Below, one piece after another: positions 51,227-64,000 of a stretch of 64,000 nt of DNA (the first letter of the stretch is position 1; every line of letters starts with the position of its first letter). The notes under the pieces are model-generated. The model had not been told where the DNA came from. It saw only the letters and a program-made list of their open reading frames with translations, and made no database searches. Both the position numbers and the translations under genes were made by a program. The DNA comes from a virus. The DNA is taken from positions 26,052-90,051 of the IMG/VR virus record IMGVR_UViG_3300028920_000055. One strand, written 5' to 3'.

Positions 51227-52740
51227 CAAAGACCAAGTACGATGATTTAAGGATGGAGCGATCTTTTCTTAGGGCTATGTTATCCGATGATAAAGTGACC
51301 AAAGAAACCAGCGAGGACACAACTTTTGGGTATAGAGCTTTCAATGACAAAGTTAATCAGAACATTTATAAAGCAATAGTGCGACATCACCGGAAATATA
51401 GTGCATTGCCTACAGCAGATGTACTTAAAAGAATTGTTATGAGGTATGTGGAGAAATCTTCTCTGTATAGTCGTGGACAACAAGCCGAAAAATATGGATT
51501 AATCATAGAAAAATTATTATCAAGAGAATCAACCAATAAGGAATTGGCCAACTTGCCCGAAATAAGAAACCAATTATTAACTTACGCGAAAGGGCGAGAT
51601 TTAAGAATGGCTATAATGAAAAGTGCCGATATGTTAGATGATGGAGATATAGACGGGGCATCGAATGTATTTTACAATTTTAAAAGCGATATGATGAGTG
51701 CTGCTGATTTATCGGATGAAGGGGACTACATATCGGATTGGACAGAGAGATGGAAACTTGTAAAGAAAAAAGAAAAGCATCCGGAATTGTTCAAGGCAAT
51801 ACCTACAGGGATTTATGGTTGGAATCCTTACGATCCATTTAAAGACAGTAACACTATTGATTTCGATGTATTTCTCGATGGCGGTCATTACGATGGAGAA
51901 TTAGAGATCGTGGTAGGGGATAGTGGAGGTGGTAAAAGCAATACATTATTAGAGTTTGCTCATAATGCCGCAATAGCGGGCAAGAATGTAATGTTATTCA
52001 CAATAGAGATGAGTCGATGGAAGATGCAAACCCGCCTTGACAGTCGCATTACAGGCATCCCTTTTCGAAAATTTCGTACTGCTACATTGACAGAAAAGGA
52101 TTGGGAGAGATGGGAAAGAAAAATGAAGGCTTGGAAGGAAAAGGTTGGAAAGGGATCGATCTATGTGGTCGGATTTCCTCAGCAGTGTACGGTAGCAACC
52201 ATAGAGGCCAAAATTAAAGAAAGGCAACAACAAAGCGGAAACAAAGTTGATCTCGTTGTGGTTGATTATCTTAATGATATAAAACCTAATGGAAGATATG
52301 AAACAGATAAGGATTGGAAGGCACAAGGAGAAATTTCTTGGGATTTAAAGCAAATGGCGGGTTTATTTAAGATACCTGTAGTCACCGCCAATCAAGGAAA
52401 GTCAAGCTCGATATTGTCCAAGTTCAAAGTCAGTGAAAGCGGAGTGCCCAAATTTCGGAGAATGATGTGGAATGATGCCGCTTTTAGCCCATTGCCCTCT
52501 CATCACTCTACAACAATAATTGGTTTGTTGTTAAGTAAAAAAGTTGATAATGGTATATGGGACATTCTTAATTCTCAAGTTATCAAGCATCGAGACGGAG
52601 AGACTACACTTGGCGTAGTAAGTGTACCTGATCTGTCAAGATGCCGGATATGTACCACTTATGCTTACGCCAAAGCAAAAGAGAGACTTGAAGAGGGCAG
52701 TGTAGAAAACTTTGAGGGCTTGACCAATGATGGAAAATAA
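51223..52740 (+). CDS. dnaB: Replicative DnaB-like helicase
   Basis: GDSGGGKS, FTIEMS, VVVDYL, VVTANQ, KHRDGE. Confidence 0.92.
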   Translation: MTKTKYDDLRMERSFLRAMLSDDKVTKETSEDTTFGYRAFNDKVNQNIYKAIVRHHRKYSALPTADVLKRIVMRYVEKSSLYSRGQQAEKYGLIIEKLLSRESTNKELANLPEIRNQLLTYAKGRDLRMAIMKSADMLDDGDIDGASNVFYNFKSDMMSAADLSDEGDYISDWTERWKLVKKKEKHPELFKAIPTGIYGWNPYDPFKDSNTIDFDVFLDGGHYDGELEIVVGDSGGGKSNTLLEFAHNAAIAGKNVMLFTIEMSRWKMQTRLDSRITGIPFRKFRTATLTEKDWERWERKMKAWKEKVGKGSIYVVGFPQQCTVATIEAKIKERQQQSGNKVDLVVVDYLNDIKPNGRYETDKDWKAQGEISWDLKQMAGLFKIPVVTANQGKSSSILSKFKVSESGVPKFRRMMWNDAAFSPLPSHHSTTIIGLLLSKKVDNGIWDILNSQVIKHRDGETTLGVVSVPDLSRCRICTTYAYAKAKERLEEGSVENFEGLTNDGK

Positions 52741-53620
52741 AGCAAGCAAGATGAGCAGAATAGCGGGAGCAATATTCGGAGCCGCCATAGGGGATGTGTT
52801 CGGCTCAATGATTTCCAGCATAAATGAATATAACAATACCGAATTGTATGGAGAATGGCCAATAAAACATTTTAAAAGACCACATGGTAAAAATGCCTTT
52901 CTCGTAAAAGGCCAATATAGCTGGCCCTTTCAGGTAATGAAGATGTTCATAAGATCAATTATAGGAGTTGGTGATAATTGGAATTCCGGCTATACCGATT
53001 TGGATGTAGCATCGGCAGTTATGGGTGGATTTTCCATTCGATATGAAAAACACACAAAAGAGGATTCTTTTCTTGGAACCGATTCAACTTATGTTATGTT
53101 GGGATCAAAAATGTTAGATAGTGGAGAGGATATACCAAGTTTTGAATTTTATCACACTGCTATGGATTCCTTTTTGCCTAAAATAATGCTTACATCATTA
53201 ATATTCGCTCCACCTTATATGAATGCCATTAGAATGTTAAAAAGCAAAATTAGTTACATGTTTAATATACCAGAGGGTCGAGATAAAAGAGAATTGTATA
53301 TGATTCCTGATTATATGATTGGGGAATCAGTAATGCATTTGTTCTCTATATCAAGTAAAATCAGTCGAATATTAAGTGATATATCAGAGATAGAGGAAAA
53401 GGCTGAGAATTTTTATGATGCCATGGTAAATTTTACAAGTTCAGGTGTATACTATCATTATGGAAACGATAGTAATTGTTTCGGTTGTATGCTTGGGGCG
53501 AGGTTGGGTTGGAGATTCGGAGTAAATAGCACAGAATTTTTCGCACACCAATTGGAGGAATTCGCAGAAATCGATAGGATGATAGATAACTTGTTAACAT
53601 TTTGGAGGGATCATGTCTAA
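52727..53620 (+). CDS. ADP-ribosylglycohydrolase-fold protein with degenerate catalytic motifs
   Basis: GAIFGAAIGDVFG and GNDSNCFGCMLGARLG match the ARH/DraG termini; TDD is absent. Confidence 0.65.
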   Translation: MMENKASKMSRIAGAIFGAAIGDVFGSMISSINEYNNTELYGEWPIKHFKRPHGKNAFLVKGQYSWPFQVMKMFIRSIIGVGDNWNSGYTDLDVASAVMGGFSIRYEKHTKEDSFLGTDSTYVMLGSKMLDSGEDIPSFEFYHTAMDSFLPKIMLTSLIFAPPYMNAIRMLKSKISYMFNIPEGRDKRELYMIPDYMIGESVMHLFSISSKISRILSDISEIEEKAENFYDAMVNFTSSGVYYHYGNDSNCFGCMLGARLGWRFGVNSTEFFAHQLEEFAEIDRMIDNLLTFWRDHV

Positions 53621-54721: not shown

Positions 54722-55495
54722 GTGGCAAATCTCAAGAAGATGACAGTGGCACAGCTTCAAAAGTTGTGCAAAAAGGAAGGCATCGAAGGCTATGAAGACA
54801 TGAAGAAATCCGATCTCATAGCCGTGTTGGAGTCAGTGGATGAGGAAGCAGAAGAGGCTGAAGTGGACGAGGAAGTGGAAGATGAGGATGAGGATTGGGA
54901 AGATGATGAGGATGATGAAGAAGGGGACGATGAAGACGAGGACGATGAGGATGATGATGATTGGGAGGAAGATGAGGATGAAGACGAGGATGAGGAAGAT
55001 GAGGAAGATGAGGATGAGGAAGATGAGGATGAGGATGATGAGGATGAAGAGGTGGTGGAAGAGAAGCCCAAGAAAAAGCCCTCAAAGAAAGCATCCAAGG
55101 CTCGAAAAGAGGGTGGTGAGCGTCTGCGTCCCTTCATCAACGAACAGATCGATCTGAACGCCAAGCTCAAGAAAAAGAATCTGTGGGTCAAGAACGCACA
55201 GTTTCTGTCCCGTGATGAGAAGAAACAGCTTCTCAAGGCCAAGAATCAAAAAGATCCCATCGCCAAAAAGGTGTACAAGCTCCTTGATAAAAAGGTCGCC
55301 GGTTTCCGCTCGAAACAGAAGGAAAAGACCAAAGCCGCCAAGACCACTACCAAGGCAGCTTCACCTTATGCCGATAAGTCTCACATCGAACTGGCCAAGG
55401 AAGTGGTGAAGCGAAAGCTGAAGCCGAAAGCCGAAGCCAAAAAGATGAGTGACTCCAAATTGATCAAGCTGCTTGAATTCGATGATGCGGAATGA
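54722..55495 (+). CDS. Rho-N/HeH-domain protein with a very long D/E tract
   Basis: LKKMTVAQLQKLCKKEGIEGYEDMKKSDLI; ~75-residue acidic run; AGGAGG RBS, GTG start. Confidence 0.8.
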   Translation: MANLKKMTVAQLQKLCKKEGIEGYEDMKKSDLIAVLESVDEEAEEAEVDEEVEDEDEDWEDDEDDEEGDDEDEDDEDDDDWEEDEDEDEDEEDEEDEDEEDEDEDDEDEEVVEEKPKKKPSKKASKARKEGGERLRPFINEQIDLNAKLKKKNLWVKNAQFLSRDEKKQLLKAKNQKDPIAKKVYKLLDKKVAGFRSKQKEKTKAAKTTTKAASPYADKSHIELAKEVVKRKLKPKAEAKKMSDSKLIKLLEFDDAE

Positions 55496-55579: not shown

Positions 55580-56383
55580 ATGGTACTTATTGATGGAAAT
55601 AATCTTTTGTATAAAGATTATTTCTCCTACAAGGGCGCGGATTACAAACAATTAAAAGATTTTTTCATTAGACATCTTCATTCGCTTGCTTCATCAGGAA
55701 TACACGATCTTGTGGTGATTTGGGATAGTGCTTTCGGATCGTGGCGCAATATTGCTTATCCATCTTACAAAGGCACAAGGACTATGTCTTTGTTCGAATG
55801 TGATAGTGAAGCAAAGAAATTTTACCACTGGAGAATAAAATTAAGACAATTTTTATACACTCGAACATCAATAAGACAAACCCATATAAATCGATTCGAA
55901 GCAGATGATATAATAGCTCTTTATGTTAGAAATAGAATCAAGAAAAAGATTGATGTTAATATAACAATAGTATCCAACGACAAAGACTTCTATCAATTGC
56001 TACATTCTTATCGTCCCACCGTGAATATTCTCCGTGTAGGTAGAAACAAACAACGTGTATTAACTCGTGAAGATTTCGAAGAAGAATACGAAATCAGACC
56101 AGCATTATGGTCTGATGTGAGAGCACTTAGTGGTGATACATCAGATAATATTCCTGGTATTGAAGGAATTGGCCCAGTAAGGGCTGTTGAAATAATAAAA
56201 ACATACGGGCCATTGAAAAAATGGATCAATTCCGTAGCTCCCAATGATAAAATAAAAATCAGCAAGTGGGCATTTAAAGCTCGCCTTAAACGTAAAAAGG
56301 TGATGTTTTATTACAAGCTTGTAGATTTAAAGAGAAATCATAGTGGTCTTAGATTGGAATTGAGTAACAATACTTACAAGTGA
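55580..56383 (+). CDS. 5'-3' exonuclease/flap endonuclease (PolA N-terminal/T5-like)
   Basis: LIDGNN, YKGTR, EADD, SNDKDFYQL, GDTSDNIPGIEGIG. Confidence 0.93.
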   Translation: MVLIDGNNLLYKDYFSYKGADYKQLKDFFIRHLHSLASSGIHDLVVIWDSAFGSWRNIAYPSYKGTRTMSLFECDSEAKKFYHWRIKLRQFLYTRTSIRQTHINRFEADDIIALYVRNRIKKKIDVNITIVSNDKDFYQLLHSYRPTVNILRVGRNKQRVLTREDFEEEYEIRPALWSDVRALSGDTSDNIPGIEGIGPVRAVEIIKTYGPLKKWINSVAPNDKIKISKWAFKARLKRKKVMFYYKLVDLKRNHSGLRLELSNNTYK

Positions 56384-57171
56384 GGCGTATCGTGAATTAT
56401 GTAAAAAATAGTTTTAAAATGGGCCCATTTCGCGTAATATCTTACAGCAGAAGAGAAATGGAACATATGACGATTGTTCCAGATGGTTGTCACTCGGATT
56501 ACGTAATACACGGCGACCTTTCTGTCGCAGCAAGTTACGAATTTGCTTCTTATTTGTTTTATAGAGGATTGGCTAAAAAATCTAATAAAATTAACAGTGT
56601 ATTAGAAGTTTTTGGCGGTTCAGGTTGGGAATCTCATCTTATTGGTAGAGTAATAAAACCAGAAAAACATTACGTATTAGAAATGTATGAACAAGGGTGC
56701 AAATCGATTGAAGAGAATTGCAATCCTACAAGTGTTATGCAAGTGGATAGTTATTACTTTTGTAGTATTCTAAAAAAACATTTTGATTTAATTGTAGCAG
56801 ATTTTAACGCATTTACATTTCGTAAAATGGAGCAAGATAGAAACATTAAGGAAGCCGTAAAAGGGATGTTTCGATCATCTAACAAATACGTTAAAATAAG
56901 CGATTCTACATTTTTCGGAATATACAGATTCCCAAAAAATATTACAAGTTACGATTTATATTTAGATGGACACGCCAAAGATTATAAACATTTTTATTCT
57001 TTAATTCAAAAGAAATTTTATAAGTTGTACGGATTTAGTCTCATTAAAGTTATAATTCCAAAAGGTAAAACTGTGGCTTTGTTAATATTTAAAAAAGGGA
57101 AATACAGCAATTTAACATTTAAGTCTGTAAATGAAAAATTTGACATGAAGATTTTGCGAGGTGTATCATGA
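56380..57171 (+). CDS. Class I SAM-binding (methyltransferase/aminopropyltransferase-like) fold protein
   Basis: VLEVFGGSG motif I, VLE motif II, FDLIVADF; no (D/N)PPY or PC motif. Confidence 0.6.
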   Translation: MRRIVNYVKNSFKMGPFRVISYSRREMEHMTIVPDGCHSDYVIHGDLSVAASYEFASYLFYRGLAKKSNKINSVLEVFGGSGWESHLIGRVIKPEKHYVLEMYEQGCKSIEENCNPTSVMQVDSYYFCSILKKHFDLIVADFNAFTFRKMEQDRNIKEAVKGMFRSSNKYVKISDSTFFGIYRFPKNITSYDLYLDGHAKDYKHFYSLIQKKFYKLYGFSLIKVIIPKGKTVALLIFKKGKYSNLTFKSVNEKFDMKILRGVS

Positions 57172-57611
57172 GACATTGGTTAAAAGCCCGTCAAGCGATT
57201 GCTTACATAAAGCATTTTATTGGATTGCCTTATATCTATGGCGGCGATGATCCAATGGCAGGATTTGATTGTAGCGGTCTTGCCATCGAAATGCTTAAAA
57301 GCGTGGGACTTTTTCCGCTTTATAGCGATATGACAGCGCAAGATTTATTTCATTATCATAGCAATTACATTGTAGATATGACTAAGCCATTTAAACCAGG
57401 CATGTTGATATTTTATGGAACAGCTCTAAACGAAATTTCTCATGTTTCGATTGTGTTAAATAAAAATCAAATTCTTGAGGCGGGTGGCGGAAGAAGTACA
57501 ACGAAAACAATTGGGGATGCAATCCGGCAAAATGCTTATATTATGTGTAGGCCCATTAGTAAAAGAGAAAACGAAATTATTGGAGTAGTTGATCCTTTTA
57601 TTAAGAGGTGA
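57168..57611 (+). CDS. NlpC/P60 cysteine peptidase (cell-wall hydrolase)
   Basis: G.PYIYGG...GFDCSG, PG.LIFY, SHV. Confidence 0.9.
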   Translation: MRHWLKARQAIAYIKHFIGLPYIYGGDDPMAGFDCSGLAIEMLKSVGLFPLYSDMTAQDLFHYHSNYIVDMTKPFKPGMLIFYGTALNEISHVSIVLNKNQILEAGGGRSTTKTIGDAIRQNAYIMCRPISKRENEIIGVVDPFIKR

Positions 57612-57615
57612 TAAA

Positions 57616-58767
57616 ATGAATCCGCCACAATTCGTTGTACTCGGATTAGGCATTAATGGCCTATTGACTTGCTTTTATCTTAGAAAAAAGTATCCCACTT
57701 GTAAAATTATCGTAATCAGCAAAGGGCCATATTGTAAGTCATTTCTCGATCATCAATATGGTGTACCAATATATTTATATTGGTCGGTTGCTACACATGA
57801 ATTGTTAAAAGATTTACTCGATTTTCGTACAAGGAGATTGAAGATAGGATTGGTGTCTGGTAATAATGTATCATCAATTAAAAAGTTTCCAGAATTTGTT
57901 ATGGATAGAATGGAGTATCTTAAATCTTATTATTACAAATGTAATTTAACAAATGATGGATATGATCCGAAAACTTACAGAGGAATGTCAGATTTCGGTC
58001 ATAATAATTTTATGGTGTGTTCTTTTAATTATCAACAATTAGTAAATAAATTGTATTCAAGGGCAAATGTGGAAGTAATTTATAATACAACAGATTATTG
58101 CATTGACACTTATGGAAGAAAAATTATAATCGAGGAAGGAGATAACAAGGCATTTTGTATTAAATACGATAAATTATTTAGTACAATTCCATTATATTCA
58201 TTGTTGGTCAATCATTATACTGCCGGAGTTCAAAAATTTTCAAAAGATTCTCAATTGGGAATTATTCAAAATCTATATAGTGAAGTAAAAAAAGTATACA
58301 ATGATGCTAACAAGGCTACAAAAGCAAGTTGTATCGTTGATACAAGCGATGTCGGTTTCCCACAATATCAAGGTGGTGGGAAAACAAAAGATTATGATTA
58401 CATTTATGTTGCGTCGCATCCACACTCAATAACTCCAATAAGGAGAATTTCATTTTCGGAAGATGGTAATTATATGTTCATTGAAATCGTAGGTAGTGTC
58501 ACTAATAGTTCATTTAGCTCTCCAACTCAATGTAGAGGATGGATTACATCTCTTTTTAATAATGAAGTTTCTATCGATGGCAAAATGGTAGATTTTGTAC
58601 ACAAAGATTGTAAAATCGTGTTGCCACATATCGTAGACAATATTATAACCGAAGAAATATTGGAAGCATTTAAATGTTTCGGAATTCATTTGTATGGTAG
58701 ATATTCGAGAATGAATACGAGGGGGTTGATTCATCATACCATAGAGCAACTTGAAAAGGAGCTATAA
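57616..58767 (+). CDS. FAD-dependent oxidoreductase-like (UGM/protoporphyrinogen-oxidase fold)
   Basis: VVLGLGINGL dinucleotide loop, YDKLFSTIPL, GI.LYGRY. Confidence 0.7.
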   Translation: MNPPQFVVLGLGINGLLTCFYLRKKYPTCKIIVISKGPYCKSFLDHQYGVPIYLYWSVATHELLKDLLDFRTRRLKIGLVSGNNVSSIKKFPEFVMDRMEYLKSYYYKCNLTNDGYDPKTYRGMSDFGHNNFMVCSFNYQQLVNKLYSRANVEVIYNTTDYCIDTYGRKIIIEEGDNKAFCIKYDKLFSTIPLYSLLVNHYTAGVQKFSKDSQLGIIQNLYSEVKKVYNDANKATKASCIVDTSDVGFPQYQGGGKTKDYDYIYVASHPHSITPIRRISFSEDGNYMFIEIVGSVTNSSFSSPTQCRGWITSLFNNEVSIDGKMVDFVHKDCKIVLPHIVDNIITEEILEAFKCFGIHLYGRYSRMNTRGLIHHTIEQLEKEL

Positions 58768-59702
58768 TGATAGAGAAAATGTGGGAAGCACAAGAGGAAC
58801 AACAAAAGCTGTGGGTGGAAGATTATGATAGTCTTTCAGATAAGGAACAGCTTGAGCTTTTACAGGAATATATTTTATCAATTATGACCAATTCGAGTCG
58901 TGTGTTAGATGAAGTAAATTGGAAATCTAATATATTGTCTCGAAAACAAATTAACACCGATAATATTACCGAACACTGTGTAGATATTTTAAAATACGTC
59001 ATTAACACATTGTTGATATTCGGAGTGTCACCGGTAGACTTTACTAAAAAATTCGATGAAAAAACGGATGCGGTTCAAAAGAAATGGGATTGGGAAAGAA
59101 AAAGAGATCGTCTCAGCGATACAGATTCGATCATTACTATTGATATAGATGGTGTAATAGCTAATTTTAGTGAGTCTTTTACCAGTTTTATTGAAAATAA
59201 AACTGGAAAGCCTCTTGTAACTGATAGAAAATACTTTCATTATTATATGAATGTTGAGGGACTTACTGCCACAGAAGAAGAAAGATTGATGGATGAATTT
59301 ATTAGGGATGGTGGTTTTTGCAGACCAAAAATCTATCCAGGCGCAAAAGATTCTATCGATGTATTAAAATCTGTGGGATTTCATATTGTATTCTTAACAG
59401 CAAGGCCATATAATAAATACAGAAGAATTTTTCGTGACACAACTTGGTGGATGGAAAAGCATAAAGTAAATTATGACGCCATTTTGTGGGATAAAGATAA
59501 AGCGGATGCTATTAAAGCATTACATCCTGCTTTCGTTTTATTTCATGTGGAAGATCGAGATAAACATGCTGTGGAAGTTGCAAACAGCGGAGTTGATGTA
59601 TTGTTATTTGATAAACCCTATAATCAAACCGTAATCCACGATAAAGTACAACGGATTACACGATGGAGCGAAGTAATTGAACGAGCATGTTCGGAGGTGT
59701 AA
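58767..59702 (+). CDS. All-alpha dUTPase/MazG-like domain fused to a HAD 5'(3')-nucleotidase
   Basis: VLDEVNWK and E..VD.LKY; DIDGV, LTARP, VEDR. Confidence 0.8.
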   Translation: MIEKMWEAQEEQQKLWVEDYDSLSDKEQLELLQEYILSIMTNSSRVLDEVNWKSNILSRKQINTDNITEHCVDILKYVINTLLIFGVSPVDFTKKFDEKTDAVQKKWDWERKRDRLSDTDSIITIDIDGVIANFSESFTSFIENKTGKPLVTDRKYFHYYMNVEGLTATEEERLMDEFIRDGGFCRPKIYPGAKDSIDVLKSVGFHIVFLTARPYNKYRRIFRDTTWWMEKHKVNYDAILWDKDKADAIKALHPAFVLFHVEDRDKHAVEVANSGVDVLLFDKPYNQTVIHDKVQRITRWSEVIERACSEV

Positions 59703-59703
59703 G

Positions 59704-60657
59704 ATGAAAGAAATGGAAGTCAAGATGCTTTCTGGAACACAACAGCCGGTAGTTACGGCTATAAAGATTTGGAAAGCATCAAAGGGAGAGGATTTTACTG
59801 ATGTAACTGAAGAAGAATCCAAGGAGTTGTGGCCTCAGTTAGTGTTACAAGATGTACCGGTGCTTGAAAATCTTCATTATCAGTTTCTTTTTCAAAATGT
59901 TCCAGTGTCTTGGCGTGAACAGGCAGTGAGGCATCGCATCGGTGTAAAAGCAGGAGAAAATTATGGTATAGACATTATACCAGATTTTCCAGGATCATCT
60001 TGGTGGAGTCAATCGATGAGGATCAAGAATGTAGGCGGATTTTACCATCGAGGCGATTTTTACATTCCTGAATCGATAAGAGGAAATAAAGAATTACAAG
60101 ACGTGTATACTCACGTTTTGGAATCTATTGGAAATGCTTACACAACTTTGGTGAATTTCGGAATTCCAATGGAAGATGCTCGCAATCTTATCCCTCTTGG
60201 AGCCACACACGATATAAGTTGGGATTTAAGTCATAAAGCAATGCTTTACATTGTAAATAAAAGATCGTGTTGGATACTTCAAGCCGGATTGTGGGTTCCT
60301 ATCATAAAAGAAATGATGTTATCACTTCTTAACTTTTATGGAAGCGAGCAGTTATTGTACGGAATGGGAAAGCCGCCTTGTTACGATCCAAAAGAGGGTA
60401 AGATCGCCGATTGTATTTTCAATTTGGAAAATGAAAGAAGATGGTCTGGGAAAGATAATCTGCCACCATGTCCCATATGGGTATATCTTGCTTGTTACAA
60501 AATAAAATATGGGAACAGCATAGAGATGGCTCACAGATGTTATCCAGAGACTCCACCAGAGGGTTCAGACATAAAAACTTTTGTTAAAGATTTTAAAAGA
60601 CGGTTGAGCCTATATTCAGAAATTTGGGGCGGTGAGATAACTGATATTTTGCTTTAA
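59704..60657 (+). CDS. Divergent ThyX-like flavin-dependent thymidylate synthase homologue
   Basis: REQAVRHR...SQSMR, EDAR.LIP, KR.C...Q; insertion inside the RHR-x7-S motif. Confidence 0.8.
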   Translation: MKEMEVKMLSGTQQPVVTAIKIWKASKGEDFTDVTEEESKELWPQLVLQDVPVLENLHYQFLFQNVPVSWREQAVRHRIGVKAGENYGIDIIPDFPGSSWWSQSMRIKNVGGFYHRGDFYIPESIRGNKELQDVYTHVLESIGNAYTTLVNFGIPMEDARNLIPLGATHDISWDLSHKAMLYIVNKRSCWILQAGLWVPIIKEMMLSLLNFYGSEQLLYGMGKPPCYDPKEGKIADCIFNLENERRWSGKDNLPPCPIWVYLACYKIKYGNSIEMAHRCYPETPPEGSDIKTFVKDFKRRLSLYSEIWGGEITDILL

Positions 60658-60722
60658 TTAGTACAATAATCCCAATCATATTTGCTTTCTCTCGCATTTG
60701 AAACATGAGTATGGAGGGTATT

Positions 60723-61865
60723 ATGAGTTATTTAATGAATACAATAAAAACCATTCCCGGTTTGGAAATAGAGCATGCCGAAGACAGTTATCTTTATGGT
60801 ACACTTAACGGAGAAGTAATGAAATGGATCGATCTTTTTAACGATAGTGGTGTTTGCTCATTGGGATACGATAATCATATTAAATATCATCTTAAAAGAG
60901 CTTTAACACCTCATATGCCCAATATAGTCAGTTTTAAATTCAGAGAAAATGTAGCCGAAGAATTATGTGACATGACAAAAATGAATAAAGTATTTTTTTG
61001 TAACAGTGGTACAGAAGCGATTGAGTCGGCTATTAAAATAATGAGAAAGGCTTCTACAGATACAAAGAAAAGATATATTTATACATATGCGAATGACTTC
61101 CACGGGAGAACATATGGAGCATTGGCGGCAAGTGATGGGCCATCTTATCATTACGAAGGATTTGGTCCACATTTACAAGGATTTAAACATTTCAAATATC
61201 CTCATCAAATTGATTGGGACGTTTGTTCCGGTATTCTCATGTCTACAGTATTCGGTAATCATGATGTAATGGATCACGGCATAGCGGAACTTAAATATTT
61301 AAGATCAATGTGTGATAGGCATAGAATACCACTTTGTTTGGACGAAATACAATGCGGAGCAGGAAGATGTGGAACGTTTAATGCTTTTGATCGATATGCA
61401 ATTGTACCGGATATTCTTTGTCTTGCAAAAGGAATTGCTTGTGGAAATACGTTGGGTGCTTGTTTAGCAAGAGGCAGATATGCTAACACACTTACTCCAG
61501 GTTCACATTTTTCTACATTTGGTGGCGGAATATATGGGTTGTTAGGAGTATTCGAATATATATCAAAGTGGAGAAATGGTGATTTAAATTATCAAGATAT
61601 TGAAAACAAAGCACATTTGTTCAAAATAAAATTGGAAGTAATAAAAGAAATAGACGAAATAAGGCAAGTGGGATTGATGATCGCTGTAAAAGTAAAAGAT
61701 GATACCGCGAAATTGGTTTCAAGAAAATTGTTAGAAAAGGGAGTATTCTTACCAACATTCAGAAGTGATGTTTTAAAAATGGCTCCGGCATTAACAATAA
61801 AAGCAGAAGAAATAGAGTTGTCAATGAATACTTTACAAGACGTAATGGAGGAGGTGTACTCATGA
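60723..61865 (+). CDS. Class III PLP aminotransferase (ArgD-like fold)
   Basis: FFCNSGTEA.E.AIK, FHGRT, DEIQCG.GR.G, PDI...AKG (PLP Lys), STFGG; GGAGGG before ATG 60723. Confidence 0.9.
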   Translation: MSYLMNTIKTIPGLEIEHAEDSYLYGTLNGEVMKWIDLFNDSGVCSLGYDNHIKYHLKRALTPHMPNIVSFKFRENVAEELCDMTKMNKVFFCNSGTEAIESAIKIMRKASTDTKKRYIYTYANDFHGRTYGALAASDGPSYHYEGFGPHLQGFKHFKYPHQIDWDVCSGILMSTVFGNHDVMDHGIAELKYLRSMCDRHRIPLCLDEIQCGAGRCGTFNAFDRYAIVPDILCLAKGIACGNTLGACLARGRYANTLTPGSHFSTFGGGIYGLLGVFEYISKWRNGDLNYQDIENKAHLFKIKLEVIKEIDEIRQVGLMIAVKVKDDTAKLVSRKLLEKGVFLPTFRSDVLKMAPALTIKAEEIELSMNTLQDVMEEVYS

Positions 61866-62509
61866 TTATTGTAATGGAAGGAATCCAGGGAAGTGGTAAA
61901 ACCAGTATTGCAAGAGCATTGGTATCAGAAAGTAAATTTAGATTCAATTTAAAAGGCGTATATTATCATTCATTTGAAAGTAAACCATCATTTTATAATA
62001 ATGGCCTTTGTAGAAAGGCTTTTCAAGACGTAGTTTTTGCTGATTTTCTTAACAAGGTTCCAATTGACGCCGATTTTATCATATTTGATAGATCAATCTT
62101 TTCAGGTTTTGTGTATGATAAATTCGAAAAGGAAAAAACCAAGACAGGCGGAGATAAAACAATACACAAAGATTATTTCCAATTTTGTCTTGAAAAATTT
62201 CACAACGGAGTAAATGGTCCATTAGTAATATTTTATCTCAATACAAAAGTAAATATTGCTCAAAAGAGATTTGATGAAAATAATAGACCGGATAGATTGT
62301 TTCTCGATACTTCTGTACAATATAAAAGATTTTGGAGCTATTATGGCAACCATCTTTCTAATATGGGAATAAAGTTATACATATATCGTAATGATAATAA
62401 TGCAGATTACGTTAATGTTTTGCAAATGGCTCGTTCAGAAATTGTAAGGACAATTAAAATAACGGAAAAGAGGCGACATGACGTACAATCCGAAAGAGAA
62501 AGTGGATGA
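61862..62509 (+). CDS. dNMP (thymidylate-like) kinase
   Basis: EGIQGSGKTS P-loop; IFDRSIFSG.VY. Confidence 0.85.
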   Translation: MIIVMEGIQGSGKTSIARALVSESKFRFNLKGVYYHSFESKPSFYNNGLCRKAFQDVVFADFLNKVPIDADFIIFDRSIFSGFVYDKFEKEKTKTGGDKTIHKDYFQFCLEKFHNGVNGPLVIFYLNTKVNIAQKRFDENNRPDRLFLDTSVQYKRFWSYYGNHLSNMGIKLYIYRNDNNADYVNVLQMARSEIVRTIKITEKRRHDVQSERESG

Positions 62510-64000
62510 ATCAAAGGTATCAAGAGTTGGTTTTGTATTCGATTATCATTCGCCACCTAAAGAAAAGGAACCGAAAGGTTGTGACAGATTTGTAAATTTA
62601 CATAATCATAGTGAATATAGCTTGCTTGATGGAATGTCAAGGATAGAGCGTGGAGTGCTTTCTCTTGACATGGATCGCCTTTATGATACACAAGTAACTC
62701 TTGTAAGAAAGGCGGATTATAATAAGCAACCTGGTGTAGGATTATCAGATCATGGCACATTAGGGGGATTTTTTCGCTTTCATACCGAAGCAGTATCTCA
62801 CAATATAAATCCTATCATTGGTATCGAATTATATGTAATTCCAGATTTAAAAAATTTGTTTAATGTGGATAGTAAGTTTTCTATGCACATGACTATGTTT
62901 GCGAAGTCTTATGATGGATTGCTTAATCTATTTAAGTTGAATAAAATCGCTTGGACAAAGGGATTTTATCGTAAACCAAAGGTTGATTATGAATCTATGA
63001 TCAATTGCAAAGGCGATACAATTCTTCTTTCCGGTTGCGGCGGAGATAGCCCATATTTAAATATTTTGAATAATGAAAATTTATCAAAGCAAGATAAGTG
63101 GGCCAAGATGTGTAAGCTCACAGAGTTTTTTATAATAAATTGGGGAGATGATTTTTATTTTGAAGTCATGCCACACAAATACGATCAACAAGTGATACTT
63201 AATAAGGCATTAATAAAATTGTCAAAGAAGTTTGATGTAAAGTTAGTAGCAACCAACGATACACATTATGCTCGAAAAGAAGATGAGATAACACACGAAG
63301 TGTTGTTGGCGATTCAAGTGCATGATAAATGGGACGATCCTAATAGGTGGACTTTTGGTGTACACGAATTGTATCCGAAAACAAGAAAAGAAATGTTTCG
63401 AGCATTTATGAAATATCATTCCTACATGGGTAAAAATAAAATTAAAGAAGCTCTTGATTCCACTATGGAGATACACGGAAAGGTTTATATCGATATACCA
63501 AAAAGAAAAGAGATGTTGCCTGAACCACTTGTACCAGATGGAATGACTAAGAAAAAATACTTTTTTAAGTTGTTGAGGAAAGGTTGGAGCATTCGTAAAA
63601 TCGAAAGTAAGCAAGCTGTGCTGCTTTCTGAAAAATTAGGAATAAGTCACAAAGAAGCTGTACAAATGTATAAAGATCGTATCAAACACGAATGGAATTT
63701 GATTGATGAATTAGGATTTCCCAATTATTTTCTAATCGTTAGAGAGGTTGTGAATTTTGCTCGAAAAAATAATATAGCTGTAGGGCCTGGAAGAGGATCG
63801 GCGGCGGCATCGGTGATTTGTTATTTGCTTGGTATCACCTCCATTGATCCGCTTGTATATGATCTAATGTTTGAGAGATTTATTTCTAAATATAAAGTTA
63901 CATTGCCAGACATCGATATGGATTTTGAAGATACCAGAAGAGATGAAATAATAGAATGGCTCAAGAAAAGATTCGGAGAGAATAATTTAGTAAACATTGG
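62478..64000 (+). CDS. dnaE: DNA polymerase III alpha subunit (family C), truncated by the window end and absent from the ORF track
   Basis: Manual translation from ATG 62478: LHNHSEYSLLDG, SDHG, GIE, ATNDTHY (PHP); VGPGRGSAA, FERF, PDIDMDF (catalytic core). Confidence 0.95.
   Translation, partial: MTYNPKEKVDESKVSRVGFVFDYHSPPKEKEPKGCDRFVNLHNHSEYSLLDGMSRIERGVLSLDMDRLYDTQVTLVRKADYNKQPGVGLSDHGTLGGFFRFHTEAVSHNINPIIGIELYVIPDLKNLFNVDSKFSMHMTMFAKSYDGLLNLFKLNKIAWTKGFYRKPKVDYESMINCKGDTILLSGCGGDSPYLNILNNENLSKQDKWAKMCKLTEFFIINWGDDFYFEVMPHKYDQQVILNKALIKLSKKFDVKLVATNDTHYARKEDEITHEVLLAIQVHDKWDDPNRWTFGVHELYPKTRKEMFRAFMKYHSYMGKNKIKEALDSTMEIHGKVYIDIPKRKEMLPEPLVPDGMTKKKYFFKLLRKGWSIRKIESKQAVLLSEKLGISHKEAVQMYKDRIKHEWNLIDELGFPNYFLIVREVVNFARKNNIAVGPGRGSAAASVICYLLGITSIDPLVYDLMFERFISKYKVTLPDIDMDFEDTRRDEIIEWLKKRFGENNLVNI

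Follow-up and report, generated by a model that had tools for sequence, protein, structure and literature searches.

A gene cluster has been analysed in a 64,000-nucleotide stretch of viral DNA (hereafter the window), which is the final 64 kb of the 90,051-bp IMG/VR virus contig IMGVR_UViG_3300028920_000055. Five adjacent genes, coding for an amine-oxidase/UGM-fold flavoprotein, a MazG::NT5C fusion, a ThyX-like flavin enzyme, a class III aminotransferase and a nucleotide kinase, form the core of a conserved phage-only module lying directly upstream of the polymerase gene. This module may encode, with a probability of about 0.5, a pre-replicative nucleotide-pool route to an amine-bearing C5-substituted deoxyuridylate, which would replace part or all of the thymidylate in the phage DNA. 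Gene identities, synteny and residue patterns are direct observations, from which we infer every chemical step as well as the presence of a modified base.

A conserved module upstream of the polymerase gene

When IMG/VR was scanned with the ThyX-like protein, 24 loci were returned, with 36-44% identity. The flavoprotein, the MazG::NT5C fusion, the ThyX-like enzyme, the class III aminotransferase, the kinase and the DnaE polymerase are all kept in 16 of these 24 loci, and the synteny of the module is retained despite protein identities of just 26-44%. The usual order in the 16 loci is flavoprotein, MazG::NT5C, a methyltransferase where present, ThyX-like enzyme, aminotransferase, kinase, a small ExoX_C-like protein and DnaE, the aminotransferase preceding the ThyX-like enzyme in some of them. 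Relative locus L010, the upstream part of which is cut off, keeps the ThyX-like enzyme, the aminotransferase, the kinase and DnaE. The reverse scan of IMG/VR, with an alignment of the aminotransferase, gave a bimodal distribution of clade-profile scores. All clade aminotransferases scoring at least 365 bits and having enough flanking sequence lie beside the flavoprotein, the HAD fusion and the ThyX-like enzyme (26 contigs, about 20 of them non-identical). Generic ArgD-like viral genes, about 50 in number, score at most 328 bits and come in many cases from giant-virus bins; none of them lies beside these three genes. A preliminary description of this DNA had grouped the thyX-like, class III aminotransferase and kinase genes into one pathway. 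Their co-conservation is indeed seen in both scan directions, and the neighbourhood is thus more than a matter of chance.

In metagenome protein catalogues, over 311 clusters belong to the clade of the ThyX-like enzyme, and the contigs that carry them reach about 116 kb. Phages of the module type are widespread, uncultured and of about 100 kb, and come from sediment, soil and estuaries; the window sequence itself originates from marine-sediment metagenomes (2019), where it is present in assembled contigs only, those of three metagenomes, two of which are probably its source. A pattern scan for the ThyX-like clade in 185,579 prokaryote species genomes found no relative, and a nucleotide search of 50,697 phage records with the 7.6-kb stretch as query gave no match. 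A tblastn search of the phage collection with the aminotransferase returned generic ArgD-like matches only, of at most 32% identity and mostly from bacterial DNA filed as phage. Some relatives show additional features around the module. Two tandem paralogues of the module-clade aminotransferase (474 and 401 bits) are found at L041:7010-9835, on a contig of 105.8 kb. At L007:1831-4865 and L011:2973-4211, a MoxR/CbbQ-type AAA ATPase and a CobT/VWA protein are encoded a few genes upstream of the module, and in the relatives with these two genes a sigma-70 region-2-like open reading frame (ORF) stands immediately before the flavoprotein gene.

The module enzymes and their setting

The ThyX-like enzyme (326 amino acids, 59677-60657, + strand) has the Thy1 fold, with 54.6 bits against PF02511 (Thy1; cut-off 24.8), and scores 38 bits against the thyX equivalog model TIGR02170, below its cut-off of 87.9. 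The top Foldseek matches of its AlphaFold2 model (pLDDT 81.8) are the structures of Thermotoga maritima ThyX (prob 1.0, TMt 0.76). E64, the RHR motif (R85, H86 and R87) and the equivalents of T. maritima R147 and R174 (R169 and R196) are all kept, and the SQSMRI segment corresponds to the canonical Ser-x-Arg segment binding deoxyuridylate (dUMP). Within the signature motif, an insert of approximately 18-20 amino acids separates the RHR from the Ser/Arg segment. The folate-stacking histidine (T. maritima His53, in the HxSxxE segment) is replaced, the family segment reading (I/V)PVxE, in which the glutamate (E64) alone is kept. Four cysteines (C198, C235, C246 and C265) are invariant in the family, where they could conceivably form a metal site, and a C-terminal extension is present. 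The window protein retains 49 of the 55 family-conserved columns and lies on a long branch of the ThyX-like tree. These residues suggest that the enzyme may still bind dUMP and flavin adenine dinucleotide (FAD), with another carbon donor or another end product.

The ThyX-like gene is also found in a second context, at L018:4236-12786. It comprises uracil-DNA glycosylase (UDG), a PD-(D/E)XK nuclease, AAA_24, DUF669, a nucleoside deoxyribosyltransferase-like protein and an HD YfbR-like 5'-deoxynucleotidase, followed by DUF6378, a radical S-adenosylmethionine (SAM)/SPASM protein, the ThyX-like enzyme and PolA. In the PolA-type phages at L005:319-3330 and L026:7736-10918, two ThyX-like paralogues flank the radical SAM/SPASM gene; the extra paralogue has no insert and misses part of the RHR motif, and its Cys set is kept.

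The aminotransferase (386 amino acids, 60705-61865, + strand) has the class III fold (fold type I, pyridoxal phosphate (PLP)-dependent), with 191.6 bits against Aminotran_3. Its score against the ArgD models TIGR00707 and NF002325 (232.4 bits) is below the cut-offs of 372 and 410. The PLP lysine K242, D213, Q216, the phosphate-binding T271 and the arginine of the FHGRT motif are invariant across the clade, in which the near-universal EPxQGExG motif reads xPVxGNxD. The C-terminal arginine which binds the glutamate/2-oxoglutarate carboxylate in T. maritima ArgD corresponds to a column varying between R and K (K in the window), and R353 nearby is invariant. The window protein keeps 40 of the 44 family-conserved columns. 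Since the PLP machinery is intact, the substrate motif remodelled and the ArgD scores below cut-off, the protein is likely to be an active transaminase with a non-standard substrate pair.

The flavoprotein (392 amino acids, 57589-58767, + strand) is a strongly diverged member of the amine-oxidase/protoporphyrinogen oxidase (PPO)/UGM fold, as judged by hhalign and Foldseek, and none of the Pfam models reaches its cut-off on the window sequence. Comparison by hhalign with the 320-370-amino-acid family of its relatives gave a probability of 95.9% (E 5.3e-9) over residues 11-389, the homology being visible at the profile level only. Its model, of moderate quality (pLDDT 65.7), matches UGM, protoporphyrinogen oxidase and monoamine oxidase in Foldseek with prob 1.0, and the two-domain FAD fold with an N-terminal GxGxxG motif, characteristic of the PF01593 clan, is recognized. 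A typical relative reaches an Atlas TM of about 0.8 to Amino_oxidase clusters.

The next gene (58767-59702, + strand) encodes the fusion of a MazG-like NTP pyrophosphohydrolase domain with an NT5C-type HAD 5'-deoxynucleotidase (311 amino acids). The C-terminal part matches NT5C with 36 bits over residues 121-304, and the HAD DxD motif (D126 and D128) is invariant. Relatives of the N-terminal domain match MazG (2.1e-7), dUTPase_2 (9.5e-5) and the Protein Data Bank entry 2q73 (3e-5), which places this domain, by way of these relatives, in the MazG / PRA-PH / dimeric dUTPase superfamily. The dUTPase-like/HAD fusion reported in the preliminary description is thus borne out. The TMK/dNK-fold P-loop nucleotide kinase (215 amino acids, 61862-62509, + strand) matches Thymidylate_kin (28.5 bits), dNK (23 bits) and PHROG 761 (6.9e-13). 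It has homologues in 46 related loci, where they follow the aminotransferase or ThyX-like gene and precede DnaE. The altered active-site motifs noticed earlier in the enzymes of this run are real.

Two more genes lie at the upstream end of the run. The protein encoded at 56380-57171 (+ strand, 263 amino acids) has a class I SAM methyltransferase fold. It has no Pfam or NCBIfam match, and the assignment comes from Atlas features (0.96 to methyltransferase clusters) and from its structure (TM 0.6-0.68 to the tRNA m6A37 MTS family). It contains the motifs FGGSGW and ADFN and keeps 23 of the 49 columns conserved in a family of just 4 relatives. Homologues of 28-29% identity are found in the relative loci L012, L020 and L023, and the gene, which sits between the HAD fusion and the ThyX-like enzyme in some relatives, is present in 6 of the 24 loci of the ThyX-like scan and in 6 of the 33 of the aminotransferase scan. 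The SAM-fold protein proposed at first as the enzyme extending the amine is real and belongs to the module as an optional component. The following gene (57168-57611, + strand, 147 amino acids) encodes an NlpC/P60 papain-like hydrolase (PF00877, 43.9 bits) with the catalytic cysteine (FDCSG) and histidine (SHV), the best solved relative being 7cfl, a cell-wall hydrolase (E 1.5e-8). It had been counted in the pathway run, which is not borne out: no homologue was found in the 24 related loci, and the gene is therefore treated as an insertion private to this phage, outside the conserved module. That it might act in the pathway on gamma-glutamyl or amide bonds was considered and dropped, the gene being unique to this phage.

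All eight genes of the run at 56380-64000 lie on the + strand with overlapping or nearly abutting boundaries, so that the tight packing, coordinates and gene identities given in the preliminary description are confirmed. Bases are shared at the boundary pairs 56380/56383, 57168/57171, 57589/57611, 58767/58767, 59677/59702, 61862/61865 and 62478/62509, and the single intergenic gap, of 47 nucleotides, lies 5' of the aminotransferase gene. The last gene (62478-63998, + strand) encodes the N-terminal 507 amino acids of a DnaE-type polymerase cut by the contig end (PHP, 82 bits; DNA_pol3_alpha, 160 bits; PHROG 405 at 1.4e-127). The contig starts within an SbcC-like gene and stops within dnaE, so that a few kb between these two genes are missing; CheckV estimates the completeness of the contig at 92%, and no terminal repeats were found on it. 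Upstream of the run lies a replication block comprising an SNF2 helicase, DnaB, an ADP-ribosylglycohydrolase-like ORF, a primase, a Rho_N/SAP protein and a 5'-3' exonuclease. The 297-amino-acid ORF at 52727-53620, between DnaB and the primase and overlapping both, has an N-terminal ADP-ribosylglycohydrolase match of 24 bits, below cut-off. The 257-amino-acid protein at 54722-55495, between the primase and the 5'-3' exonuclease, carries an N-terminal Rho_N/SAP DNA/RNA-binding motif. Farther upstream, before the window, contig bases 3692-4090 encode a MazZ-like DUF550 dATP/dGTP pyrophosphohydrolase (46 bits). A purine-replacement (Z-genome) reading of this gene is unsupported, because PurZ and ribonucleotide reductase are absent from the five genomes in which they were looked for, namely this one and four complete relatives.

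Cultured relatives and known base modifications

For a typical member of the ThyX-like clade, the cultured-phage matches are gp124 of LIS04, a Listeria phage of the SP-15 group, followed by Pbunavirus, Wifcevirus, Rhizobium and other phage ThyX proteins, at about 27% identity. The closest of these cultured relatives belong to phages with proven thymidine hypermodification, in the SP-15 group (PMC5977210) and in Pbunavirus (PMC12191111). In phage SP-15, about half of the thymine is replaced by 5-(4',5'-dihydroxypentyl)uracil, and those who sequenced it put forward its divergent ThyX, gp130, as the source of a modified dUMP; a gene annotated as an 'acyl carrier protein reductase' (gene 129) is numbered directly before that of gp130 (PMC5977210). 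According to titles cited in PMC5977210 and PMC8989533, the five-carbon side chain was reported to be ribose-labelled and made at the triphosphate level. LIS04 gp124, which is likely to be the equivalent of SP-15 gp130, is the best cultured match (119 bits on the ThyX-like profile, 27% identity) and has the C-terminal extension in common with the ThyX-like enzyme. It differs by the lack of the RHR motif, of the insert and of the Cys set; moreover, no aminotransferase or homologous flavoprotein is encoded nearby, and the polymerase is of the PolA type.

The likeness to the Pbunavirus group (PB1, F8, 14-1 and EPa61) and to Wifcevirus extends to gene order, with a homologous flavoprotein, a phage-type ThyX with C-terminal extension, a HAD phosphatase, an exonuclease and DnaE in the same succession. 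In EPa61, gp32 is followed, some genes further on, by gp38 (ThyX, 68 bits on the ThyX-like profile), gp40 (HAD-PNKP), gp41 (exonuclease) and gp42 (DnaE). EPa61 gp32 is homologous to the module flavoprotein (hhalign 96.3%, E 1.5e-9), with the same C-terminal LGRFAxW motif. Homologues of this flavoprotein occur in about 300 Pbunavirus records, as well as in Wifcevirus, Xanthomonas, Serratia and Rhizobium phages. The order in the Wifcevirus SP13, an Escherichia phage, is flavoprotein, small ORF, ThyX, HAD-PNKP, short-chain dehydrogenase/reductase (SDR), exonuclease and DnaE; at L115:9194-10525, the stretch separating the ThyX/HAD-PNKP pair from the polymerase genes holds the SDR reductase (adh_short, 108 bits) together with a weak glyoxalase-like ORF. 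Neither Pbunavirus nor Wifcevirus has the class III aminotransferase, the MazG fusion or the TMK-fold kinase; their HAD protein is of the PNKP type, and their ThyX has no insert and reads RTR in place of RHR. Since the flavoprotein and ThyX are found there without the aminotransferase, this pair is older than the aminotransferase. The FAD oxidoreductase of the preliminary description is real, its partner being ThyX rather than the aminotransferase. The slot after ThyX/HAD holds different carbonyl-acting enzymes, an SDR in Wifcevirus and a transaminase here.

In virion DNA of the Pbunaviruses F8 and 14-1, about a quarter of the thymidine is replaced by thymidine derivatives with masses of 362 U and 390 U, which have been described as a sugar-alcohol and an aldopentose derivative (2025 preprint, PMC12191111). 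By our own arithmetic, deoxyuridine (dU, 228) plus pentose (150) minus O (16) gives 362. Both a 5-(tetrahydroxypentyl) side chain and a tetritol O-linked to 5-hydroxymethyl-dU agree with this mass, which therefore does not discriminate between the two. The side chains reported for Pbunavirus are sugar-like, not amines. A literature search found no paper assigning genes to the SP-15 or Pbunavirus modifications, or describing a ThyX-aminotransferase module.

Two better-known types of phage base modification can be compared with the module. In T4 (5-hydroxymethyl-deoxycytidine) and in SPO1, SP8 and phi-e (5-hydroxymethyl-dU), a thymidylate synthase (TS)-type enzyme acts on the deoxynucleoside monophosphate (dNMP), which is then served by a dedicated dNMP kinase, with destruction of the canonical dNTP/dNMP and a phage polymerase. 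By homology and synteny, a dNMP kinase, a dNTP/dNMP-degrading enzyme and a polymerase are also found in one block here. The T4/SPO1 type uses hydroxymethylases of the ThyA family, whereas the present module has a divergent flavin-dependent ThyX, no ThyA homologue having been found, and no described counterpart of its class III aminotransferase and amine-oxidase/UGM-fold flavoprotein was found. Post-replicative hypermodification, as in M6, ViI and PaMx11, also gives amine-bearing C5 thymidine products, with tailoring by PLP and radical SAM enzymes (PMC5889632, PMC8989533), and the involvement of an FAD enzyme in the PaMx11 route to 5-aminomethyl-dU, mentioned in the preliminary description, is correct (gp47; PMC8989533). 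These systems, however, start from ThyA-type 5-hydroxymethyl-dUMP and act on DNA through the 5-hmdU DNA kinase and aGPT-Pplase. Neither protein was detected among the module genes by Pfam or PHROG, no dedicated genome-wide search having been made. Here, in contrast, all the enzymes look like nucleotide-level ones (kinase, nucleotidase and dNTPase), and a class III transaminase takes the place of a decarboxylase as the PLP enzyme. The earlier statement that no characterised pathway is known with an ArgD-fold aminotransferase between the TS homologue and the kinase agrees with the literature, in which no paper describing an aminotransferase in such a phage base-modification pathway was found. 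The tRNA mnm5U pathway (MnmE/MnmG and MnmC) offers an analogy only: its logic is comparable, with flavin/folate-dependent C5 aminomethylation of uracil, an FAD oxidoreductase and a SAM N-methyltransferase. Its proteins bear no relation to those of the module, in which no homology to MnmG, MnmE or MnmC was seen; the tRNA pathway also has no aminotransferase, and its substrate is tRNA.

A possible thymidine-replacing pathway and its alternatives

In the proposed route, the ThyX-like enzyme, with its dUMP and FAD residues kept and its folate-stacking histidine absent, would act with the amine-oxidase/UGM-fold flavoprotein to place a carbonyl-ended carbon substituent onto C5 of dUMP, the simplest products being 5-hydroxymethyl- and then 5-formyl-dUMP. 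The class III PLP enzyme would convert the carbonyl into a primary amine, most simply giving 5-aminomethyl-dUMP, which the SAM methyltransferase-fold protein, where present, could N-methylate. The TMK-fold kinase would then phosphorylate the new dNMP, the HAD 5'-deoxynucleotidase would remove the competing canonical nucleotide, assisted in relatives by the fused MazG dNTPase, and the phage DnaE would incorporate the product into DNA. Known base-replacing phages likewise have a dNTPase/dNMPase and a dedicated kinase beside their polymerase. Also in favour of the route are the synteny retained at low protein identity, the confinement of the aminotransferase clade to the module, the lack of relatives of the ThyX-like clade in prokaryote genomes, the residue patterns of the ThyX-like enzyme and of the aminotransferase, the hypermodified thymidine of the phages with the closest cultured ThyX and, in Wifcevirus, another carbonyl-acting enzyme in the slot after ThyX/HAD. 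The single Thy1 gene and the lack of ThyA in this genome and four complete relatives, two of which have a dCMP deaminase, point the same way. The specific version passing from 5-formyl- to 5-aminomethyl-dUMP is by itself unlikely, other reaction orders fitting equally well.

Several observations weigh against this route. The families nearest to the aminotransferase handle C4-C5 omega-amino acids, not nucleotides, and amine-oxidase-fold flavoproteins normally oxidise C-N bonds, not alcohols. The flavoprotein is paired with ThyX even where the aminotransferase is absent, and may just serve ThyX. ThyX, HAD phosphatase, exonuclease and DnaE form an old replication-module layout in cultured phages, so that a ThyX adjoining the polymerase is nothing special. 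In the tree, ThyX-like enzymes of the aminotransferase and radical-SAM/PolA contexts mingle on short branches, and all of them may thus carry out the same reaction, possibly an ordinary one. The window copy also shows losses of its own. Its flavoprotein keeps the GxGxxG motif but, out of 30 columns with a conservation of 95% or more among the relatives, only 15, and its MazG domain, which looks inactive, has lost the glutamate pair of EExxE (E41 to T, E42 to N). Because of these two changes, the pathway may be altered or partly decayed in this phage. The window module is thus a divergent variant, in which the ThyX-like enzyme and the aminotransferase look intact and two accessory activities may be changed or lost.

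An ordinary supply of thymidylate (dTMP) is a somewhat unlikely alternative, in which the ThyX-like enzyme is a dTMP synthase, the flavoprotein its helper (for flavin reduction or one-carbon supply), the kinase a dTMP kinase and MazG::NT5C a pool-sanitation enzyme, the aminotransferase being an accessory of amino-acid, polyamine or C1-donor metabolism and the DNA canonical. The kept dUMP- and FAD-binding residues agree with it, as do the identical ThyX/HAD/exonuclease/DnaE layout of the cultured phages, the small differences between ThyX-like enzymes of the aminotransferase and radical-SAM contexts, and the match of the kinase to the dTMP-kinase family. Moreover, each of the five genomes has one Thy1 gene and none gave a match to PF00303 (ThyA), which did match control genomes, so that the ThyX-like enzyme may be the sole dTMP source brought by the phage. 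Such a supply nevertheless gives no role to an aminotransferase clade found only, and always, within the module, and it leaves the loss of the folate-stacking histidine, the insert and the four invariant cysteines unexplained. A fusion of dNTPase and 5'-deoxynucleotidase breaks deoxynucleotides down, an activity more in keeping with exclusion than with supply, and the cultured phages with the most similar ThyX carry hypermodified thymidine (PMC12191111, PMC5977210).

The order of the steps could also be reversed, which appears quite doubtful. The aminotransferase, perhaps with the flavoprotein, would then make an aldehyde from an omega-amine (ornithine, acetylornithine, putrescine or a GABA-like compound), and the reduced flavin of the ThyX-like enzyme would capture it as an N5-iminium and transfer it to C5 of dUMP, giving dUMP with a long 5-alkyl or 5-aminoalkyl chain; a sugar aldehyde might serve in the same manner. 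This would suit an aminotransferase whose nearest families are all of the C4-C5 omega-amino type and whose FHGRT arginine, which binds the distal carboxylate, is invariant, as well as a ThyX-like enzyme devoid of the folate-stacking histidine. UGM-fold flavoproteins work through a flavin N5-sugar iminium, and T. maritima ThyX structures with formaldehyde and with the N5-carbinolamine flavin exist (7ndw and 7ndz). The ribose-labelled five-carbon chain of SP-15, made at the triphosphate level according to the cited titles (PMC5977210, PMC8989533), and the 362 mass of the F8 nucleoside (PMC12191111), equal in our arithmetic to dU plus pentose minus O, point in the same direction. The Pbunavirus masses, however, fit O-linked 5-hydroxymethyl-dU derivatives too, Pbunavirus and Wifcevirus have no aminotransferase, and this reading is itself inferred in all its parts. 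Nor do we know of any flavin-dependent C5 alkylation beyond one carbon. It is very improbable that the product is not a DNA building block at all, but an inhibitor of a host enzyme, a signal or decoy against nucleotide-based defence, or a capsid-glycan precursor. The 5'-nucleotidase domain could indeed free a nucleoside, and nucleoside natural-product pathways pair ThyX-like or TS-like enzymes with aminotransferases. The module, however, always lies within replication genes directly upstream of DnaE and includes an enzyme of dNMP-kinase fold, and no transporter or export function is found nearby.

The proposed route to an amine-bearing deoxyuridylate belongs to a known kind of system, the phage thymidine-replacing pathway. 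Its new enzymology would be a C5 enzyme of the ThyX instead of the ThyA type, an amine-oxidase/UGM-fold flavoprotein as partner and a transaminase step. To our knowledge, all characterised pyrimidine hypermodifications begin with ThyA-family enzymes. If true, this would thus be the first pyrimidine hypermodification built on a ThyX-type flavoenzyme, and the first one using a transaminase. Modified bases allow phages to escape restriction and CRISPR-type nucleases, and their pathways are a source of enzymes for biotechnology. A bolder generalisation, itself rather unlikely, is that a phage-type ThyX and a UGM/amine-oxidase-fold flavoprotein form a general unit installing carbonyl-bearing chains on C5 of dUMP, common to the SP-15 group, Pbunavirus, Wifcevirus and uncultured phages. 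The carbonyl would then be tailored to polyols by an SDR, to amines by an aminotransferase or to other groups by a radical SAM enzyme. Such a unit, if real, would name the orphan genes for dihydroxypentyluracil and for the Pbunavirus thymidine hypermodifications, and would define a new class of nucleotide C-alkylating flavoenzymes.

The window holds a divergent member of the module, linked to Pbunavirus and Wifcevirus by sequence comparison. The homology to the Pbunavirus flavoprotein-ThyX pair offers a cultured and genetically tractable handle, in phages which are themselves therapeutic Pseudomonas phages, and through this pair the origin of the hypermodified thymidine of the Pbunaviruses becomes directly testable.

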